From: Acidobacteriota bacterium | GTDB taxonomy: Bacteria > Acidobacteriota > Thermoanaerobaculia > Gp7-AA8 | Direction of reading: 5' to 3' | NCBI GenBank assembly: GCA_019244185.1 | Contig: JAFATB010000014.1 | Span: forward strand, 160,001 to 224,000 | Length of the DNA stretch: 64,000 bases | Shown here: positions 3,318 through 56,104 of the stretch, piece by piece | Layout: each line of letters opens with the position of its first letter | Position numbering within the stretch: the first letter of the stretch is position 1 | Translations under genes and position numbers: made by a program | The notes under the pieces: model-generated | Databases searched by the model: none | What the model saw: only the letters and a program-made list of their open reading frames with translations | Told to the model about the DNA's origin: nothing

Positions 3318-4441
3318 CAGCCCCGCAGCCGCCTTCGCACGCGCAGGAGCAGTTGCACCGGCATGCGCAGCGCGCGCGCGTTCAACAGACGCACGCGCCA
3401 CGGACTCGCCGCGCGCGGCGCCTGCGCATACAGATGCGGCGTGACGTGCGCGAGCGACGCGCCGATCGCCGCGAGGTCGTCGCGCGGATCGACGTCGATC
3501 GGCGACGCGAGCAGCTCTTCGTAGAGCTCGATGTACTGCTGCGCGAGCAGGTCGACGCCCGCGCTCGCGCGGATGCGATCGGTGACCGGCGCGGCGTCCG
3601 CGGGATCGTACCGATCGAGCTCGGCGAGAACGCTCTCCACGGTCGTCGGCGTGTCGAGCAAACGATGTCCGAAGTTCAGCACGCGCATCGCGTCGAGCCG
3701 CTCCGTCGTGACCATGCCTCCGATGCCGCGCAGATCGGCGGCGACGACGGCGCAACCGCTGGCCATCGCCTCCAGCGCCGAGCGTCCTTTCGCGAAGACG
3801 ACGTCGTAGTCGCGCAGCACGTTCTCGGGAACGATGACGTTGCCGCTGGCGACGCCCGCGAGATCGACGGCGATGCCGCGGCGCGCACACGCATCGCGGA
3901 TCGGCGCGGCGAAGGTGTTCTCCGCGGCGCTGTTGCTGAAGACGAGCGCGCGGCGCGGCTTCTCGGGGAGCGGCCCGCGCCGCGGGAAGCGTTCGAGATC
4001 GACGGCGTTCGCGAAAATGCGGATGTCGCGCTCGGGAATGCCGTGCTCGAACATCATCCGATCGCGGCAGTTGCGGTCGACGGCGACGTATGCGCGCAGG
4101 CGCGGCCCGCGCGGCGGGATCGAGTGCCACGAGATCGCGTCGTGGCAGACGAACAGTGCGGGCACGCCCGGAAAACGCGCCATCGCGGCGATCGTCTCGA
4201 GGTGATGGTGGCCGTGGATGACGTCGGGTGCCGCGGCGAGATCGGCGACGTCGCTGACGACCGGCACGCTGGCGTTGCGCACGGAGCGGCGCAGCGCGCC
4301 GACGCGCGTCGCGTAGACGACCGGCTGCACGCCGCGGCGTTGCAGCGTGACGGCGAGATCGCGCGTGTAGAGGTCGGTGCCGCTTGGTGCGTCGAGCGCG
4401 GCCGTCGCGATGAGGATGCGACGCGGCTCAGGAGTGCTCAT
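3317..4441 (-). CDS. Glycosyltransferase (GT-B, family 4-like)
   Basis: RRILIAT...SGTDLY N-terminus, PDVIHGHH, NAVDLERF, GRSALEAMASGCAVV. Confidence 0.85.
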   Translation of the reverse strand: MSTPEPRRILIATAALDAPSGTDLYTRDLAVTLQRRGVQPVVYATRVGALRRSVRNASVPVVSDVADLAAAPDVIHGHHHLETIAAMARFPGVPALFVCHDAISWHSIPPRGPRLRAYVAVDRNCRDRMMFEHGIPERDIRIFANAVDLERFPRRGPLPEKPRRALVFSNSAAENTFAAPIRDACARRGIAVDLAGVASGNVIVPENVLRDYDVVFAKGRSALEAMASGCAVVAADLRGIGGMVTTERLDAMRVLNFGHRLLDTPTTVESVLAELDRYDPADAAPVTDRIRASAGVDLLAQQYIELYEELLASPIDVDPRDDLAAIGASLAHVTPHLYAQAPRAASPWRVRLLNARALRMPVQLLLRVRRRLRG

Positions 4442-49441: not shown

Positions 49442-50875
49442 ATGACTCTCTTCCTCGTGATCTTCGGTGCTCTCGCGTTCGCGGCCGTCGTGGTTCTGGC
49501 CGTTCTTCTTCGCAGTCAAACCCTTCAGCGAAATCAACTGGTCGAGCGATTCCGCGGTGTCGTCGATGCGGATGCGGAACGCAAGCGCGTCCTCGCTGAG
49601 CTCGAACGCGAGCAAAACGCGGCGCGCTCTGAGACCGAGCGGCAGCGCGCCGAGGCCGCGGCGCAGCTCGCGTCGATCCGCAACCAGACCGCCTCGGATG
49701 CGCAACAACTGGCTGAGCTCCAGCGGAACATTCAGGGCCTGCGTGCGGAATTCGCGGCCCTCGATGAGGAGGCGAATCTCCAGTCGTTCGGCTTCTACAA
49801 ACCGCATTACGCGTTTGCGGACTCAGCGCACTACGCGGCAGAGCTGGAGCGCATTTGCGACGCGCAGAAAGAAATGCTGAAACAGAAGCGCGCCGCCGTC
49901 TGCCAAAGCGAGTGGACCGTGAACGGCAGCAAGGCCGAAGGTCGCAAGCAGGTGAATCAAACCCTCAAGTTGATGCTGCGCGCGTTCAATGGCGAATGCG
50001 ACGCGGCCATCGCCAAGGTCCGCTACAACAACGTCCACGTCATGGAAACGCGGATCAACAAAGCGTACGACGTCATCAACAGCCTCGCCGAGGTGCAGCG
50101 TTGCGACATCACGCGCGAGTACCGCGAGCTGAAGTTGCAGGAACTCCGGCTGGTGCACGAGTACGAGGAGAAGCTGCAGGAAGAAAAAGAAGAGCAGCGC
50201 CGGATCCGCGAGCAGATGCGCGACGACGAGATCGCGCAACGGGAGCTGGAGAAGGCGCGCCTCGACGCGGAGCGGGAAGAACAGCGTTACGAGAAGGCGC
50301 TCGCGAAGGCGCGGGAAGAAGCCGAGCGTGCGGTGGGCGCGAAACAGGAGAAGCTGCTGAGCGAGATCGACGCACTGCGGCAGCGGCTCGCGGAAGCACA
50401 GGCGAACAAGGAGCGTGCGATTGCGCGCGCGCAGATGACGCGTTCAGGGCACGTCTACGTGATCTCGAACGTCGGCTCTTTCGGTGAGCACGTCTACAAG
50501 ATCGGTATGACGCGGCGGCTCGATCCGATGGACCGCATCCGCGAGCTCGGCGACGCGTCCGTGCCTTTTCAGTTCGACGTGCACGCCGTCCTGTTCAGCG
50601 AAGATGCTCCGGCTCTCGAGAATCGGCTGCATCGCGCATTTCACCAGCGCCGCGTGAATCGCATCAATGAACGGAAAGAGTTTTTCCGCGCGACCATCGA
50701 CGAGATCATCACCACGGTCCAGCAGCATCACGGCGACGAGATCACGGTGACGCGTGCGGCGGAGGCGACCGAGTATCGCAAGACGCTCGCGCTGCTCGAA
50801 GCGGAACGTCAGCAGACTGCGACGCTGCCGATTCGCGAGGCCCCGGCGCCGGTGCGTTCCGTCGCCGCGGTCTGA
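49442..50875 (+). CDS. DUF4041 + T5orf172/GIY-YIG-like domain protein with N-terminal TM anchor
   Basis: TM, coiled coil, LMLRAFNGECD, EEQRRIREQMR, GHVYVISNVGSFGEHVYKIGMTRR, LGDASVPFQFDVHA, RKEFF. Confidence 0.9.
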   Translation: MTLFLVIFGALAFAAVVVLAVLLRSQTLQRNQLVERFRGVVDADAERKRVLAELEREQNAARSETERQRAEAAAQLASIRNQTASDAQQLAELQRNIQGLRAEFAALDEEANLQSFGFYKPHYAFADSAHYAAELERICDAQKEMLKQKRAAVCQSEWTVNGSKAEGRKQVNQTLKLMLRAFNGECDAAIAKVRYNNVHVMETRINKAYDVINSLAEVQRCDITREYRELKLQELRLVHEYEEKLQEEKEEQRRIREQMRDDEIAQRELEKARLDAEREEQRYEKALAKAREEAERAVGAKQEKLLSEIDALRQRLAEAQANKERAIARAQMTRSGHVYVISNVGSFGEHVYKIGMTRRLDPMDRIRELGDASVPFQFDVHAVLFSEDAPALENRLHRAFHQRRVNRINERKEFFRATIDEIITTVQQHHGDEITVTRAAEATEYRKTLALLEAERQQTATLPIREAPAPVRSVAAV

Positions 50876-50878
50876 CGC

Positions 50879-51475
50879 CTACGACACGATTTCCAGCTCC
50901 GCGACCGTCGAACGCAGCTCGCGCGGGAGCCAGCAGTACGGGCCGATTTGCGTGAAGCCGGCTTTGCGGAACGTGTTGCGGTAGAACGCGGCGGGACGGC
51001 GCATGAGGCCGTCGAGGTCGCCCACGATGTCGTCTTCTTTCGTGAGGACTTCGAGGAAGGCGAGGCCGTCGCATGCTTTCGCGATCGCGGCGATGCCGGG
51101 GCGGATGTCGCGCTCGGCGACGTAGTGCAGGACGTCGGAGCAGATGACGAGATCGTGGACACCGAGGTCGAGGGAGGGGAGCTCGTGGAAGGCGGCCTTG
51201 TGGATGTTGCGCGTGCGGCCGAAGCGCTCGACGGCGTAGTCGGAAGGATCGAGTCCGGTGTACTCGATGCGGCTGCGCAGCGCGCGGAGATGCGGGAGCC
51301 ACGCGCCTTCGCCGCAGCCGACGTCGAGCACGCTGCGCAGCGGGCGGCGCATCACGTACTCGGCCATGGCCACGGCGAGCGCCACCTTGCGGCGCACCTC
51401 GAGGTGCGAGTTCACGCGCGTGTCGGGGCGGTGGTACCAGCGTTCGAAATACGCGCGGTCGTACTCTTTGGGCAT
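50879..51475 (-). CDS. Class I SAM-dependent methyltransferase
   Basis: VLDVGCGEG motif I, GLDPS, DLVICSDVLHYV; start MPKEYDRAY. Confidence 0.9.
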   Translation of the reverse strand: MPKEYDRAYFERWYHRPDTRVNSHLEVRRKVALAVAMAEYVMRRPLRSVLDVGCGEGAWLPHLRALRSRIEYTGLDPSDYAVERFGRTRNIHKAAFHELPSLDLGVHDLVICSDVLHYVAERDIRPGIAAIAKACDGLAFLEVLTKEDDIVGDLDGLMRRPAAFYRNTFRKAGFTQIGPYCWLPRELRSTVAELEIVS

Positions 51476-51489
51476 CGGCGCGAATCGTA

Positions 51490-52377
51490 TTACGGCTGCC
51501 TGGTCGCGTAGGCGACGAGGCGGAACTGGCGGATCGGCGCGGCGCTCGGCGTGAGGCACGTGGCGTACGCCGACTCGACCGCGGTGTAGTGCTCGAGCGT
51601 GACCTCGTGGATCGTGCCGCTGTTGTCGCGCAGCTCGATGCGCGTGTGGCCGTCGACGAGCGACTCGCGGCTGACGAAGTGCAGGGCGTCGCGCGCGTGC
51701 AGGCTCGTGGCGCGGCGGACGAACGTCTCCGCCGCCTGTACCGGACGCGAGACGGAGCTGCGCCCGCGATACGACGGCAGGAGGATCTCGTCGCGCGCGA
51801 TCGAGGCTACGAGCTCGTTCGCCTGCGACGGCTCGACCGGGCCGTAGTAGAGACCCCACGGCAGCACGAGCGCGTTCGCGGCGAAGCGATCGCCGCCGAT
51901 GTGCGAGCACTGCCAGACGTCGATGCCGTCGTAGTGGCGCAGCGCGTCGTAGAGCGGATAGCCGCGGCGGCCGCAACAGGAGTCGTGCTGGCCGTGCGTG
52001 CAGACGAGGACGAGCGGCTTCGCGACCGGCGCGATCTCATCGCGCAGCGCCTCGAACGAGAAGGTCGCCAGCTCGTCGATCGAGTCGAGGTCGCGCATCG
52101 CGACGCCGGGATGGGGCGTGCTGCGCGCGACGTAGACGCGGATCGGGCCGAGGCATTCGTTGCGGCGGCGGATGAAGACGACGCGGCTGCGCTGGATCGC
52201 GCGCGTGGCGCGGAGCAGCGCGGTGCGGGCCGCGGGCGGCATCGCCGCGTCGGACATCGGCTCGCGTCCCCAGGTGATCGGCAGTTCGACGAGGATCCAG
52301 AGATCGACGCGCGCGGCGCTGGCGATGTTGTCGTCGCCGCGCAACCGCGCGGCGTCGGAGCAGAACGGGCGCCTCAC
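51490..52377 (-). CDS. Sucrase-ferredoxin family (Apd1/Aim32-like thioredoxin-fold [2Fe-2S]) protein
   Basis: FCS N-terminus, WILVELPITWG, LVCTHGQHDSCCGRRG, WQCSHIGGDRFAAN, YYG, YRGRS; GTG overlaps the upstream TGA. Confidence 0.9.
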   Translation of the reverse strand: MRRPFCSDAARLRGDDNIASAARVDLWILVELPITWGREPMSDAAMPPAARTALLRATRAIQRSRVVFIRRRNECLGPIRVYVARSTPHPGVAMRDLDSIDELATFSFEALRDEIAPVAKPLVLVCTHGQHDSCCGRRGYPLYDALRHYDGIDVWQCSHIGGDRFAANALVLPWGLYYGPVEPSQANELVASIARDEILLPSYRGRSSVSRPVQAAETFVRRATSLHARDALHFVSRESLVDGHTRIELRDNSGTIHEVTLEHYTAVESAYATCLTPSAAPIRQFRLVAYATRQP

Positions 52378-53603
52378 GCGTCCGGCTCGCCCGTCACGTT
52401 GACGAGCCCCTGCCGCGCGAGGTCCGCGACGAACTGCTGCACGGCGTCGGGCGCGAGCGCATCGCCGGCCGCGGTGCAAAGCTCGGCGACCGTCGCGGGA
52501 CCGCGCGCGAGCGTGTGCAGCAGCGGCTCGGTCGCGGCCGCGAACTGCCACGCGCGGCCGTTCGCGTCGAAGCGGATCGCGTCGGCGTCGCGGACGATGT
52601 GCAGTTCGCGCGGTGCGGCGAGCATCACGCGCGCATCGAGCGGCAGCGCCGTCGCATCGGCAACGCTCCACGGCAGATTCGCCCAGCCGCGCGAACGCGC
52701 GCGTACGTCGTGATGCGCGAAGTAGCGTGCGAGCAGCTCGTCGTCGAGCTGGTCGACGAGTTGGCGGCGCAGTTTCGCGAACTGCTCCCTGCGTTCGTCA
52801 TCGGATGCGAAGCGTCGCAGCGGCGCGCGAAAGTCGGTCGACGCGCGCAGCTGATCGCCGAGCCAGTGCACGAGATTGACGCCCGTGCGCTGGTGGATGC
52901 CGAACGTGAGATGCAGCGTGACCTCGCCGACGCCCGACGCCTCGTGCCACCAGCCGCGCGGGATGTAGAGCGCGTCGCCGTCTTCGAGCAATCCTTCCCA
53001 TACGACCTTGTCGGGCGCGGTCTTGTTCGGCGCGATGTCGTCTTTCAGCGGATGCGGACGTCCGCCCTCGTACACGCGCCAGTACTTTTTCCCGTAGACC
53101 TGCAGCACCACGACGTCGTGCGTGTCGCAGTGGCGGTTGAAGCCCTGCTGCTCGCGCCATCCCGCGTACAGATTCACCTGCACGGCTTCATGCAGCACCC
53201 GCTCGAAATCCTCGGCCAGCCGCATCACGCCATCGGCCATGTCGTCGACCGCGTCGATGATCAGCGTGTAGCCGTCGCGCAGCCGTTCGGCGAGCTTCTC
53301 CGGCACGACGAACGGCACGCGTCCGCCGTCGTAGCGGAGATACGCGTTCTTCGGCGCGAACTCTCCCTTGCGCACGAGGCGCAGGCGCGGCGGCTCGAGG
53401 CGGTGCTTCTGCAGCATCGCATTCACTTCATCCCACGAGAGCAGCGACTGGAAGCGCCCGCGCTCGCCGGGGAGATGCGCGAACGTGCGGCCCCAGACGC
53501 GCGTGAGGAAGTCATCGGCGCCGTTCGCGCCGATGACTTCCGTGAAACTCGTGCCGCGTGACGCGACGTCAGGCGTTGTCGGTGCCGTCGGAGTCACCGC
53601 CAT
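52374..53603 (-). CDS. JmjC/Cupin_4 2OG-Fe(II) oxygenase (YcfD/NO66-like) with C-terminal winged helix
   Basis: QVNLY, FNRHCDTHDVVVLQVYGKKYW (HxD), LYIPRGWWHEA (distal His), HLTFG; the nearest in-frame starts (ATG 53603 / GTG 53597) overlap the upstream peptide gene, so the start is uncertain. Confidence 0.9.
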   Translation of the reverse strand: MAVTPTAPTTPDVASRGTSFTEVIGANGADDFLTRVWGRTFAHLPGERGRFQSLLSWDEVNAMLQKHRLEPPRLRLVRKGEFAPKNAYLRYDGGRVPFVVPEKLAERLRDGYTLIIDAVDDMADGVMRLAEDFERVLHEAVQVNLYAGWREQQGFNRHCDTHDVVVLQVYGKKYWRVYEGGRPHPLKDDIAPNKTAPDKVVWEGLLEDGDALYIPRGWWHEASGVGEVTLHLTFGIHQRTGVNLVHWLGDQLRASTDFRAPLRRFASDDERREQFAKLRRQLVDQLDDELLARYFAHHDVRARSRGWANLPWSVADATALPLDARVMLAAPRELHIVRDADAIRFDANGRAWQFAAATEPLLHTLARGPATVAELCTAAGDALAPDAVQQFVADLARQGLVNVTGEPDA

Positions 53604-53871
53604 CGGTGCCGTCGTCGTCTCCTTCTTCGTCATCGTCGGCCGCGTCGCCGTCTTCGCCGTCGGTGCCGTCACCGTCGGTGCCGTCGCCTTCGCCGGCGTC
53701 GCCGTCTTCACCGTCGGTGCCGTCGCCGTCCGTGCCGTCGGCGTCGCCGCCGTCGGTGCCATCCGAATCGCCGCCCGGCTTCTTGCCGGGCGCGTCGGAA
53801 CCAGCGGTGGCGGCGAGCATCACGGCATCCAAATCGCGAATCTCATCGATCAACTGCATCTCTTCGCTCAT
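53569..53871 (-). CDS. 100-aa Asp/Gly-rich repeat peptide (putative RiPP-like precursor)
   Basis: GGAGG RBS 5 nt before ATG; N-terminal leader-like MSEEMQLIDEIRDLDAVMLAATAG..., then core with seven DGTD repeats. Confidence 0.85.
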   Translation of the reverse strand: MSEEMQLIDEIRDLDAVMLAATAGSDAPGKKPGGDSDGTDGGDADGTDGDGTDGEDGDAGEGDGTDGDGTDGEDGDAADDDEEGDDDGTDGGDSDGTDNA

Positions 53872-53902
53872 GCAAACCTCCAAATCAGATGAACCCGACG
53901 CG

Positions 53903-53936
53903 TGCAGTGCTCGGGCCAAATGCAAAGGACGGCCCG
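53903..53936 (-). promoter_or_regulatory. Tandem sigma54-like -24/-12 elements upstream of the peptide gene
   Basis: TTGGCCCGAGCACTGCA (53919-53903) and CGGGCCGTCCTTTGCA (53936-53921), both GG-N10-GC. Confidence 0.6.
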
Positions 53937-53973
53937 GGGGCCGCCCTTTTCCGACTGCACCGCGCGCGACATT

Positions 53974-54342
53974 CTAGAGGGTTGCCCGCGCCACCGCGTG
54001 TGAATTCGGCGTGCGGCCGTAGCGCTGCGTGGCCCAGCCGACGATCGCGCCGACGGCGCTGCCGGGAAGCATGACTTCCCAGAAATACTTGCCGCCCTGC
54101 ATGGCCACGATGCCGTACGCGAGCAGCGCGCCGACGGCGAGTCCGAACGCGATTCCGGCGGCGACGTTCTGCACCTTGCGCGCGAACCATCCCGCGGCGA
54201 TGCCGGCGATGATGCCTTTGAAGGTGGAGCCGATGACGATGCCGATGATGGCCGCGCGCACCTCCGGCGTGAACCACGCCGTCATTCCGTCGAGCGCGCC
54301 GAGGATGGCGCCGAGCACGATTCCGAGCAGTACTTTGTTCAT
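53974..54342 (-). CDS. Small 4-TM membrane protein
   Basis: Gly-rich hydrophobic helices, AGGAGG RBS. Confidence 0.8.
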   Translation of the reverse strand: MNKVLLGIVLGAILGALDGMTAWFTPEVRAAIIGIVIGSTFKGIIAGIAAGWFARKVQNVAAGIAFGLAVGALLAYGIVAMQGGKYFWEVMLPGSAVGAIVGWATQRYGRTPNSHAVARATL

Positions 54343-54399: not shown

Positions 54400-55296
54400 C
54401 TAACGATGCACCGCGATGAGGACGATGACGCGCATGATGAGGTACGCGACGACGACGGCGACGAGCGCGCGGTTGCGCGCGAGCCAGCGTCCCGCGCGTT
54501 CGAAAGCGTTCTCGCGATACGCGGCGAGCGGCGCGCCGTCGAGGTAGCGGACGAGGTCTGCCGCGAGCTCGCCGGCATTCGCGTAACGCGCATCGCGATC
54601 GGCGGCGGTGGCCTTGTCGATGATTGCGCGCAGGAGTTTCGGCGGCGCGACGAGGAGCGCGCGCAGCATCGCGCCGAGGGCGTAGACGTCGGCGCGCGCG
54701 TCGACCGGCTCGCCGCGTTCCTGTTCCGGCGCCATGAAGCCGCGCGTGCCGGCGAGGACGCGCGTGTTTGCGTCGACGCGTGATTCGTCGACGGTGCGAG
54801 CGACGCCCCAGTCCATCACCAGCACTTCGCCGAATGTACCGGTCATGACGTTCTGCGGTTTGAGATCGCAGTGCACGACGCCGCGCGCGTGCGCCAGCGC
54901 GACCGCCTCGCAGACGCGAAGCAGGATGCGCAGGAGCTCGGTCGTGCCGCACGCGAGCTCGTCGAGGCGCTGCCCGCGCACGAGCTTCATCGCGTAATAG
55001 ATGCGGCCGTCCGCGAGCGTGCCCGCGTCATGGAGCGGCACGATTCCCGGGTGTTCGAGCCGCGCCACGACGCGCGCCTCCGCGCGCATGCGCTCCGCCG
55101 CCGCGGGACTCGCGGTTTCCGTCGCGAGGACTTTGATGGCGACGCGCCGATCGAGCTCGCGATCGTGCGCCTCGTAGACGACGCCCATGCCGCCGCGCCC
55201 GAGCTCGCGCACGAGGTCGTAGCGCGTGCCGGAAAAGTCGGGGAGCTCGGCCGCGTCGCGAAGGCGCCCGACGGCGGCGTCGGAGAGCCAGGTCAT
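54400..55296 (-). CDS. Hanks-type Ser/Thr protein kinase with single C-terminal TM
   Basis: LGRGGMGVVY, VAIK, HCDLKPQN, DWG, GTRGFMAPEQ, DVYALG; start MTWLSD at 55296. Confidence 0.93.
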   Translation of the reverse strand: MTWLSDAAVGRLRDAAELPDFSGTRYDLVRELGRGGMGVVYEAHDRELDRRVAIKVLATETASPAAAERMRAEARVVARLEHPGIVPLHDAGTLADGRIYYAMKLVRGQRLDELACGTTELLRILLRVCEAVALAHARGVVHCDLKPQNVMTGTFGEVLVMDWGVARTVDESRVDANTRVLAGTRGFMAPEQERGEPVDARADVYALGAMLRALLVAPPKLLRAIIDKATAADRDARYANAGELAADLVRYLDGAPLAAYRENAFERAGRWLARNRALVAVVVAYLIMRVIVLIAVHR

Positions 55297-55424
55297 GGGG
55301 CGGCTCCGGGTGGGGAGGGGGAGGGGGAGGGGGCGTGCGTGGCGGCGCGCCGCGTGCCGGAAAAGTCGGGGAGCTCCGCCGCATCGCGAAGGCGCGCGAC
55401 GGCGGCGTCGGAGAGCCAGGTCAT
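55223..55424. repeat. Direct duplication (about 74 nt) of the kinase 5' end, separated by a (GGGGGA)n tract
   Basis: 55223-55296 vs 55351-55424 differ at 3 positions. Confidence 0.88.
55293..55424 (-). CDS. 43-aa mini-ORF made from the duplicated kinase N-terminus
   Basis: MTWLSDAAVARLRDAAELPDFSGTRRAATHAPSPSPSPPGAAP*; ATGA overlap with sigma stop and ATGA overlap with kinase start. Confidence 0.45.
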   Translation of the reverse strand: MTWLSDAAVARLRDAAELPDFSGTRRAATHAPSPSPSPPGAAP

Positions 55425-56104
55425 GCATCCACTCCGAGAAGCGCGCGCACTTCCGCGCGGAACTCGCGCTCGGAGGCGGTGGCGTCGCGCAAGACGTCGA
55501 GCACGTGCTCACGAAAGTGGCGGCGCATCGCGGCGAGGCGGTTCGTCACCGTGGTCTCGCTCATGCCGAAGCGGGCGCCGAGCTCGCGGTACGACAGGCG
55601 CGCGTCGTCGAGGTCGTACGCCTGGAAGAGCGCGAAGTCGTCGTCGCGCGCGCCGGCGCGCAGTCGCTCGACGGCCACGCTGAACACGCTTCGCGCCCAT
55701 TCGCGCTGAAAGTACTCCTCGGGCGATCCGCCGCGGTCGTGCTCGCGCGCGAGCTCGGCTTCCGCCTCATCGAACGGCAGGTCCGCCGCGCCGCCGCCGC
55801 GTTTGAGGCGGCGCTCCGCCTTCATCTCATTGGCGAGATGGCGATCGAAGAGCAGGCGCAGGAACGTGCGGAAGCTCGCCTTCGCGGTGTCGTACGACGC
55901 GAGCGCGTTCTTCTCGAGCACGTATGCGAGAAAGCTCTGCGTGCGGTCTTCGGCATCGTCGCGGCGGTGGGCGATGCGCGCGTACTTGTAGAGCGGACGC
56001 CAGTAGATCGAGACCACCGCATCGAGGGCGCGCGCCCGTTCGAAAGCGTCAGTGCTGCCGAGGGCTTCGACCACGCTCCGGCGCGTCGTGGGGAAGAGGG
56101 ACAT
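55421..56104 (-). CDS. ECF sigma factor of the kinase-associated type
   Basis: FPTTRRS N-terminus, YWRPLY, DAEDRTQSF, KASFRTFL, LKRGGG, SYRELGARFG; directly upstream of the kinase. Confidence 0.9.
   Translation of the reverse strand: MSLFPTTRRSVVEALGSTDAFERARALDAVVSIYWRPLYKYARIAHRRDDAEDRTQSFLAYVLEKNALASYDTAKASFRTFLRLLFDRHLANEMKAERRLKRGGGAADLPFDEAEAELAREHDRGGSPEEYFQREWARSVFSVAVERLRAGARDDDFALFQAYDLDDARLSYRELGARFGMSETTVTNRLAAMRRHFREHVLDVLRDATASEREFRAEVRALLGVDA

Follow-up and report, generated by a model that had tools for sequence, protein, structure and literature searches.

Within a 64,000-nt stretch of an Acidobacteriota genome (class Thermoanaerobaculia; GenBank assembly GCA_019244185.1, contig JAFATB010000014.1, positions 160,001 to 224,000; hereafter the window, with coordinates counted from its first letter), a small open reading frame (ORF) encodes a peptide composed of a leader, a short basic linker and seven repeats of the tetrapeptide DGTD. 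This ORF may be the precursor (substrate) gene of an undescribed peptide-modification system, possibly one making a metal-binding peptide. It heads a cassette of three genes on the minus strand, in the order peptide, JmjC_2 oxygenase (PF08007), Suc_Fer-like ferredoxin-like protein (PF06999). We favour, with a probability of about 55%, the reading that the repeats are iteratively oxidised under guidance of the leader, most likely by Asp hydroxylation, and that the three genes form a self-contained cassette. The coordinates of all features are listed in Table 1.

Translation of the ORF (53569-53871) yields 100 residues, 30 of which are Asp. Residues 35-100 comprise 26 D, 20 G, 7 T, 5 A, 5 E, 2 S and 1 N and no other residue, so that the repeat core has neither Cys nor aromatic residues. 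DGTD units start at residues 37, 45, 50, 63, 68, 87 and 95, the 15-mer DGTDGDGTDGEDGDA is present twice (at residues 45 and 63) and the PGKKPGG linker occupies residues 28-34. The length, the core composition, the seven units, the duplicated stretch and the linker had all been listed in an initial annotation of the window, made from the sequence alone, and were reproduced by translation. When residues 35-100 were shuffled 100,000 times, the mean number of DGTD units was 0.33 and the maximum 4; seven units were never reached. At DNA level, the array is also called by Tandem Repeats Finder; G+C content of the window is 68%. Net charge of the peptide is -35, that of its orthologues -19 to -29. 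No Pfam or NCBIfam family matches the peptide itself. The peptide stretch is identical in contigs of three sequencing runs, which are possibly the source samples and therefore do not count as independent, and contigs of a fourth run (soil) break within the repeat.

The repeat DNA is open in two frames, namely the Asp/Gly (D/G) frame described above and a Thr/Ala/Pro (T/A/P) frame that is open from 53762 into the JmjC gene. One may therefore ask if there is a separate peptide at all, or if the repeat encodes, in the +1 frame, a T/A/P-rich N-terminal extension of JmjC that the D/G frame shadows. The open T/A/P frame itself speaks for the extension, as do public JmjC calls (409 and 419 aa), which begin within the repeat, and the lack of the window peptide in the protein collection searched (see below). 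On the contrary, the T/A/P frame is interrupted by stop codons across the leader region. Pairwise differences between orthologues, counted at the first, second and third codon positions of the D/G frame, amount to 102/43/216 for the leader and to 61/56/196 for the nine final codons, so that third-position variation tracks the D/G frame. In most orthologues JmjC has its own start beyond a stop-containing spacer, and its frame relative to that of the peptide can be any of the three. A ribosome-binding site and a promoter precede the ATG of the D/G frame in 16/16 loci, and actinobacterial loci also keep the D/G peptide. Since T/A/P stops occur in the leader, the GGAGG is conserved, differences accumulate at third positions and the JmjC frame varies, the D/G frame is the real coding frame, and the 100-residue peptide gene is real and conserved; an N-terminal extension of JmjC is extremely improbable. 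According to the initial annotation, orthologues conserving the T/A/P frame, or a leader that is not conserved, would have spoken against the peptide. The T/A/P frame is not kept and the leader is, an outcome that favours the peptide.

Alignment of 220 nt upstream of the ATG from 16 loci revealed one conserved block only. GGC-N8-TGCA is found in 16/16 sequences, about 20-40 nt before the ribosome-binding site, and is extended to TGGC in 12/16; we take this block to be the -24/-12 pattern of sigma-54 promoters. Since the window contains a single match to the pattern and 1.38 are expected by chance, this match is not significant alone, and the sigma-54-type promoter is called because of its conservation in 16/16 loci. 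RpoN is encoded in the source genome (PF04552, E 1.8e-66). Scanning for sigma-70 promoters and terminators gave nothing useful. Just upstream of the promoter, at about 53926-53946, there is a GC hairpin with a T-run that probably ends the preceding gene, and the peptide gene would therefore head its own transcription unit.

The initial annotation had also warned that gene callers could overlook the peptide or call the shadow frame instead. This holds for the source genome, where the peptide is uncatalogued and JmjC is called with a start overlapping it. The peptide is missing from a collection of 15 billion proteins, in which four candidate starts were tried; both neighbours are present there, JmjC as both the 409-aa and the 419-aa version. 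Orthologous peptides elsewhere are annotated as "hypothetical protein". Here a real gene has thus dropped out of annotation, as the caller prolonged the gene behind it into a repeat with two open frames. A metagenome-assembled genome (MAG; locus L088) displays an apparent peptide-JmjC fusion of 466 aa, which we rejected as a false ORF arising from a one-base indel at 3530-3600 within the DGTD repeat. In repeats of this kind, errors of assembly or consensus arise easily.

Orthologues of the window JmjC (72-79% identity) were detected in 16 of 24 other genomes of the same genus and in none of 16 genomes of other genera in the class. The peptide is located just upstream of JmjC in 15 of these 16 loci, or in 14/14 when two loci from unpublished genomes (L018 and the peptide-less L010) are omitted. 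The Suc_Fer-like gene starts with a GTG that overlaps the JmjC TGA by 4 nt (GTGA), and the same overlap occurs in the listed same-genus orthologues. Seven same-genus loci have long flanks, and they have only the peptide, JmjC and Suc_Fer-like genes in common. Their flanks are mutually unrelated, containing amidase, asparaginase, Exo_endo_phos, DyP-type (dye-decolorizing) peroxidase and other genes. A profile of the peptide matched 1 of 401 genomes sampled evenly across the phylum, namely the source genome itself; within the phylum, the peptide is therefore seen in this genus only. As to the single orthologous locus without peptide (L010, G024:C13), its JmjC contains an internal TAA and its upstream sequence differs, the DNA about 250 nt upstream of JmjC carrying tandem units that read ATGNGQRVN / GNRQQ in two frames.

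Searches beyond the genus extended this picture. A protein search retrieved 205 small proteins at E <= 0.001, several of them from MAGs of Thermoanaerobaculia. Those with a name are all "hypothetical protein", no Pfam domain was detected in any, and the leaders of some are quite different. When species genomes were searched with a DNA pattern of three DGTD units, at least 120 loci were obtained. Among those listed, 31 have a DGTD-repeat ORF directly before a same-strand JmjC gene; these ORFs are mostly shorter than 160 aa, several having inflated upstream starts or being cut at contig ends. Actinomycetota contribute 28 of the 31 loci (Nocardioides, Intrasporangium, Propioniciclava, Ilumatobacter and many MAGs; JmjC identity 25-35%) and Thermoanaerobaculia the other 3 (75-79%). 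The Suc_Fer-like gene comes next in 28/31 (31-50% identity in the actinobacterial loci), and the remaining 3 are cut by contig or locus ends. In the other 88 listed loci, which lack a JmjC match, the DGTD runs are part either of unrelated large proteins or of small ORFs that lack the arrangement of a leader plus octads. One further locus with a small ORF (L137, Nocardioides panacisoli) stops too close behind the peptide for its downstream genes to be assessed. Beyond the trio, no further conserved gene was found in the 25 actinobacterial loci compared. The candidate modifying enzyme is adjacent to the peptide and co-conserved with it, both among the JmjC loci of the genus (15/16) and among the 120 pattern loci listed (31). 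The cassette, a three-gene system not described so far, is conserved across two phyla; the form found in Acidobacteriota is a lineage variant that has a leader of its own and a sigma-54 promoter. Our literature search found no published description of a peptide-JmjC-Suc_Fer cassette; supplements that possibly list such neighbourhoods (PMC12710340, PMC2938197) were outside this search.

The sixteen orthologous peptides share a leader motif, hydrophobic-x-[DE]-x-hydrophobic-[RQ]-[DE]-hydrophobic (e.g. LIQDVRDL; LIDEIRDL in the window), and contain 3-7 units. The stretch after the leader holds the only basic residues of the peptide, often as K/R-x-G-G, and 12/16 peptides terminate with DGTDNA. 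Actinobacterial peptides have their own conserved leaders, such as PLSDDDITT, and 3-12 units. Orthologue comparison, which the initial annotation had suggested, thus bears out a conserved leader with variable repeat number, and the combination of conserved leader and variable core is that of a precursor of ribosomally synthesised peptides that are modified post-translationally (RiPPs).

Dominant spacing of units across the family is 8 residues (xGDxDGTD). The pattern (G/D)xDGTDG, regarded earlier as the usual form, does match 5 of the 7 units in the window; across the family, the dominant spacing is not 7. In units matched by D[GA][TS]D, Gly is conserved to 93-96%, Thr to 94-97% and the Asp two residues earlier to 79-88%, and linker positions are variable. 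One orthologue (L011) terminates in three DGED units, so that Thr is not indispensable in every unit. The idea that the repeats are DxDxDG calcium loops found no support: the units are DxDGTD with a period of 8, and successive Asp residues read D-x-x-D-x-D-G. Cation binding by a geometry other than DxDxDG or EF-hand-like is possible.

In the JmjC protein, residues H158, D160, H220 and K173 are invariant in 30/30 family sequences, and the HxD...H triad is intact; K173 would be the Lys that binds 2-oxoglutarate (2OG). The AlphaFold2 (AF2) model has a predicted local distance difference test (pLDDT) score of 81.6. Best full-length Foldseek matches are the ribosomal oxygenases (ROX) NO66, MINA53 and YcfD, with E-values of 4.6e-23 to about 1e-16 and template modelling (TM) scores of 0.5-0.6. 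Like them, the protein consists of three domains, i.e. the JmjC domain of the JmjC_2 family with its triad, a helical dimerisation domain and a C-terminal winged helix. Pfam detects the last of these by a weak ROXA-like_wH match (E 0.035). Secondary structure elements of the C-terminal domain in the AF2 model are strands 325-328, 342-347 and 350-355 followed by helices 356-367, 372-379 and 385-397. The order strand-strand-strand-helix-helix-helix was used to define the RiPP recognition element (RRE) in a survey that also mentions PF08007 proteins with fused RRE-like domains and bacterial JmjC homologues whose surroundings are RiPP-like (PMC12710340). Neither the winged helix nor the ferredoxin-like profile retrieved anything informative when PDB sequences were searched. 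A second, distant JmjC_2 copy is encoded elsewhere in the source genome.

Spacing between the peptide and JmjC genes differs among loci. In the window and at least 3 orthologues there is no spacer, and JmjC must therefore start within the end of the peptide gene. In other orthologues, all 8 spacers of at least 50 nt between the peptide stop and the JmjC start form strong GC hairpins (z -2.4 to -12.7); such hairpins would fit a precursor transcript in excess over the enzyme transcript. The spacer of one locus (L017, G019:C82) consists of 110 nt of GAGGAACTCC-like units forming a near-perfect, very long hairpin, with a minimum free energy (mfe) of -81 kcal/mol and z -12.7.

Prediction of the JmjC-peptide complex gave a score of 0.61 (0.60, 0.61 and 0.61 in three runs) versus 0.00 in all three controls. 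The calibration mark for this score was reached by 58/80 solved complexes and 2/110 mismatched pairs, counts that are only rough because user-supplied alignments were employed. The runs share at least 21% of contacts, and pLDDT of the partner is at least 36. The confident interface joins peptide residues 6-15, in antiparallel orientation, with JmjC residues 349-355 (third strand) and 383-398 (third helix), and it coincides with the conserved leader motif. RREs bind their leaders in this manner, as a strand antiparallel to the third strand and packed against the third helix. The leader is thus predicted to bind the winged helix of JmjC. Of the amphipathic leader helix proposed in the initial annotation, the leader is real and conserved; the helix is not supported, the leader being predicted to bind as an extended strand. 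Net charges of the two enzymes display no obvious complementarity to the peptide.

The third protein of the cassette contains a thioredoxin-like ferredoxin fold. Its AF2 model has a pLDDT of 92.2, and residues 118-215 match thioredoxin-like [2Fe-2S] ferredoxins with Z-scores of 10.3 (1f37) and 10.1 (5abr). Foldseek returned no match to the model at E <= 0.001, the best having a probability of 1.0 and E 0.035, and in a wider structural search only the central domain was matched. Residues C126, C134, C135, H159, G161, G162, D163 and C274 are invariant and C6 is nearly so. In yeast Apd1, the cluster motif is a Cys pair together with HxGGH, which the invariant residues resemble in spacing. All 31 Suc_Fer-like sequences of our set contain H159-x-G-G-D163, i.e. 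Asp in place of the second His. In view of this HxGGD, binding of a [2Fe-2S] cluster is putative, and so is the function of the protein.

Taken together, these features suggest the following scheme. From a sigma-54-type promoter, a small gene would be expressed whose product starts with a leader of about 25 residues, continues with a short basic linker and then has xGDxDGTD octapeptide units in variable number. The ROX-like JmjC 2OG/Fe(II) oxygenase, by means of its RRE-ordered winged helix, would hold the leader as an added strand at its third strand and third helix. The disordered core, tethered in this way, could then pass through the active site one unit after another, its side chains being oxidised there. 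The likeliest reaction would be C-3 (beta) hydroxylation of at least one Asp per unit. The translationally coupled Apd1-like protein may keep iron of the oxygenase reduced over many turnovers or perform a second oxidative step. The product would be a poly-hydroxylated, polyanionic peptide with strong affinity to metal cations. The multi-site RiPP core, one of two options offered by the initial annotation, is thereby supported in outline, in agreement with both the conservation of the peptide-JmjC-ferredoxin cassette and the leader binding predicted for JmjC.

The proposed modification of Asp would have a counterpart in the ROX enzymes, which hydroxylate a protein side chain at C-3. The window JmjC resembles E. 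coli YcfD/RoxA and human NO66 and MINA53 in family, triad and domain architecture. It differs from them in that sequence identity is only 17-20%, that according to the complex model a leader is held by its winged helix and that its gene is locked to private repeat-peptide and ferredoxin-like genes. This genomic context points to the adjacent peptide, rather than a ribosomal protein, as the substrate.

Other modification systems provide further parallels. BipG of biphenomycin biosynthesis, a JmjC enzyme, hydroxylates ornithine in the precursor of a RiPP (PMC12707348). As in the window, a JmjC 2OG/Fe(II) enzyme is paired with a ribosomal precursor peptide, the window peptide being a putative precursor. 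BipG is, however, described as one tailoring enzyme in a large cluster with a radical S-adenosylmethionine (SAM) enzyme, a multinuclear non-haem iron-dependent oxidase (MNIO), a peptidase and a transporter (PMC12707348), whereas the window JmjC would be the primary enzyme of a three-gene cassette with a poly-Asp repeat substrate. RRE-PF08007 fusions share the order of elements with our JmjC model, and the main text of their description names no DGTD-repeat substrate and no Suc_Fer-like partner (PMC12710340). In another RiPP system, the 2OG enzyme SmaO beta-hydroxylates Asp of the precursor and a second iron enzyme, SmaX, acts next, the Asp being converted to beta-hydroxy-Asp and then to aminomalonate (PMC12186529). 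The logic of a 2OG oxygenase combined with a second iron protein is similar, by analogy and not by homology. SmaX is an HD-domain protein and not a thioredoxin-fold ferredoxin (PMC12186529), and among the genes conserved with the cassette in the 7 same-genus and 25 actinobacterial loci there is no HD-domain gene.

The Suc_Fer-like protein, in turn, shares with Apd1/Aim32 proteins and with the ferredoxins Aquifex Fd4 and Azotobacter FeSI the PF06999 family, the superposable central domain, the Cys pair and H-x-G-G. It departs from them by N- and C-terminal extra domains without clear fold match, by HxGGD and by further invariant Cys residues (C134/C135, C274).

Several observations weigh against leader-guided oxidation of Asp in the repeats. 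The complex model contains no confident contact for the repeat core, and hence indicates no target residue; the fold of the peptide itself is predicted with low confidence there. Conservation of Thr in DGTD about equals that of the Asp residues, so that Asp is not singled out as the target. No leader peptidase or exporter is conserved in the 7 long same-genus or the 25 actinobacterial loci, which is unusual for a secreted RiPP; the peptide might accordingly act inside the cell or be a polyanion without modification, and housekeeping enzymes could replace the linked ones. The second His of the bis-histidine HxGGH ligand set is lacking in the Suc_Fer-like protein, and we know of no established role for a ferredoxin-type partner of 2OG oxygenases. 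Finally, the window itself has no peptide-JmjC spacer and no spacer hairpin, and its JmjC start is ambiguous.

Some of these points would equally suit a peptide that stays unmodified, in line with the cation sponge that was the second option of the initial annotation. As a disordered polyanion, it might buffer or store Ca2+, Mg2+ or Fe, or act as regulatory partner, pseudo-substrate or metallochaperone of the oxygenase-ferredoxin pair, the leader merely docking to the oxygenase. High negative charge, a core without Cys or aromatic residues, the cassette without protease or exporter and a complex model that docks only the leader all agree with this, and the free number of repeats (3 to 12 units) looks as if bulk charge outweighed defined sites. 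The constraint on the sequence, however, exceeds what a charge sponge needs, since DGTD is near letter-perfect across two phyla and the linkers vary. Strict pairing with a triad-intact oxygenase suggests catalysis on the peptide, and the units do not match the DxDxDG calcium loop. We therefore regard an unmodified polyanion as unlikely, though compatible with the sequence. Less probable still is a multi-core precursor, in which each octapeptide would be oxidised and then excised by housekeeping peptidases to give many copies of a small DGTD-derived chelator or cofactor-like compound, by analogy with multi-core RiPP precursors of fungi or cyanobacteria. This could explain why the units are many and nearly identical, with a near-invariant four-residue core and variable linkers, and why a basic K/R-x-G-G is conserved in the genus between the leader and the first full unit; two redox proteins would be enough for multi-step oxidation. 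Nevertheless, neither phylum has a cassette-linked peptidase, the inter-unit linkers have no conserved cleavage signal and units are often fused or shortened (spacings of 3 and 5 residues), which argues against precise excision.

Leader-guided oxidation of the repeats thus remains the reading we prefer. A more far-reaching version of it, which we put forward tentatively and hold to be doubtful as a whole, is a new RiPP class present in at least two phyla. In this class, an RRE-bearing ROX-type JmjC enzyme and an Apd1-like partner would iteratively oxidise Asp of octapeptide repeats to a poly-(beta-hydroxy-Asp or further oxidised) metallophore or mineral-binding peptide, giving the first biochemical role for a bacterial Suc_Fer-like protein. 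If true, ROX-type JmjC proteins, so far known for single-site hydroxylation of ribosomal proteins, would also be primary, leader-guided peptide-modifying enzymes. The uncharacterised bacterial Suc_Fer-like (Apd1-like) proteins would gain a function, and a ribosomally encoded poly-hydroxy-aspartate peptide would represent a new kind of metal-binding natural product. As the cassette consists of three genes and is present in cultured Nocardioides strains, it is directly testable.

Table 1. Features of the peptide-JmjC-Suc_Fer cassette and its surroundings (window coordinates unless a locus is named)
Feature	Position	Strand	Remarks
Sigma-54-type promoter element (-24 GG / -12 GC: TGGC-N8-TGCA)	53903..53918	-	sole pattern match in window; conserved placement
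GGAGG ribosome-binding site	53877..53881	-	5 nt 5' of ATG, read from sequence; about 5-11 nt before ATG in 16/16 loci
Leader region, residues 1-34, with recognition-like motif QLIDEIRDLD and basic PGKKPGG linker	53770..53871	-	motif kept in orthologues; residues 6-15 are the confident interface in the complex model
Repeat core, residues 35-100, with seven DGTD units, C-terminal DGTDNA and TGA stop	53569..53769	-	translation, unit counts, shuffles
JmjC (PF08007) oxygenase	52374..53603	-	PF08007 E 1.3e-24; start ATG 53603 or ATG 53633, both overlapping the peptide 3' end
Suc_Fer-like (Apd1/Aim32-type) thioredoxin-fold ferredoxin-like protein, 295 aa	51490..52377	-	PF06999 E 2e-22
Generic class-I methyltransferase	ORF 50879-51976, domain aa 210-316		directly downstream of cassette; real start probably after 51490
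DUF4041 + T5orf172/MUG113 protein	49442-50875	+	downstream of cassette
122-aa protein without family	53974-54342	-	upstream of cassette, not conserved with it
Ser/Thr protein kinase	54400-55512	-	upstream of cassette, not conserved with it
ECF-type (extracytoplasmic function) sigma factor	55421-56104	-	upstream of cassette, not conserved with it
DyP-type peroxidase	L024 7004-8209	-	
DyP-type peroxidase	L025 6538-8016		
DyP-type peroxidase	L028 9963-10844		
DyP-type peroxidase	L027 3713-4579		
DyP-type peroxidase	L023 17318-17959		

Genes surrounding the cassette in the window are not conserved with it. The methyltransferase and the DUF4041/T5orf172 gene have no counterpart in the seven long orthologous loci and, since they are not found beside the cassette elsewhere, resemble a window-specific insertion. 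Apparent methyltransferase matches in orthologous loci were discarded, being only shadow-frame matches over the ferredoxin-like gene. The neighbouring methyltransferase, considered as a partner of the peptide in the initial annotation, is of generic class-I type without match to protein isoaspartyl O-methyltransferases (PIMT), and this role is not supported. The related suggestion of an aspartimide or isoAsp route fares no better, as no PIMT-family O-methyltransferase is co-conserved with the cassette and the 25 actinobacterial loci have no extra conserved gene.

Further observations concern JmjC_2 paralogues. At L030 (G004:C219, 34-6153), a locus of the same genus, a class II lanthipeptide synthetase (LanM; DUF4135 + LANC_like, 988 aa) has a tandem pair of JmjC_2 paralogues and a PhyH dioxygenase as its neighbours. 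We take this locus for a RiPP cluster candidate of its own, in which JmjC enzymes would do the tailoring, and the position of the paralogues beside LanM fits a peptide-tailoring role for the family. At L029 (G015:C77, 2813-3067, plus strand), a small ORF with a (PN)n run (PPNPNPNPNPNPNPNPNPKPK) is located a few kb from a distant JmjC_2 paralogue.

No DyP-type peroxidase was seen in the window between 44000 and 64000. In 5 of the 7 long same-genus loci such a gene occurs within a few kb of the cassette, in varying position and orientation; in two of them (L024 and L025) it is divergent from the cassette and adjacent to it.

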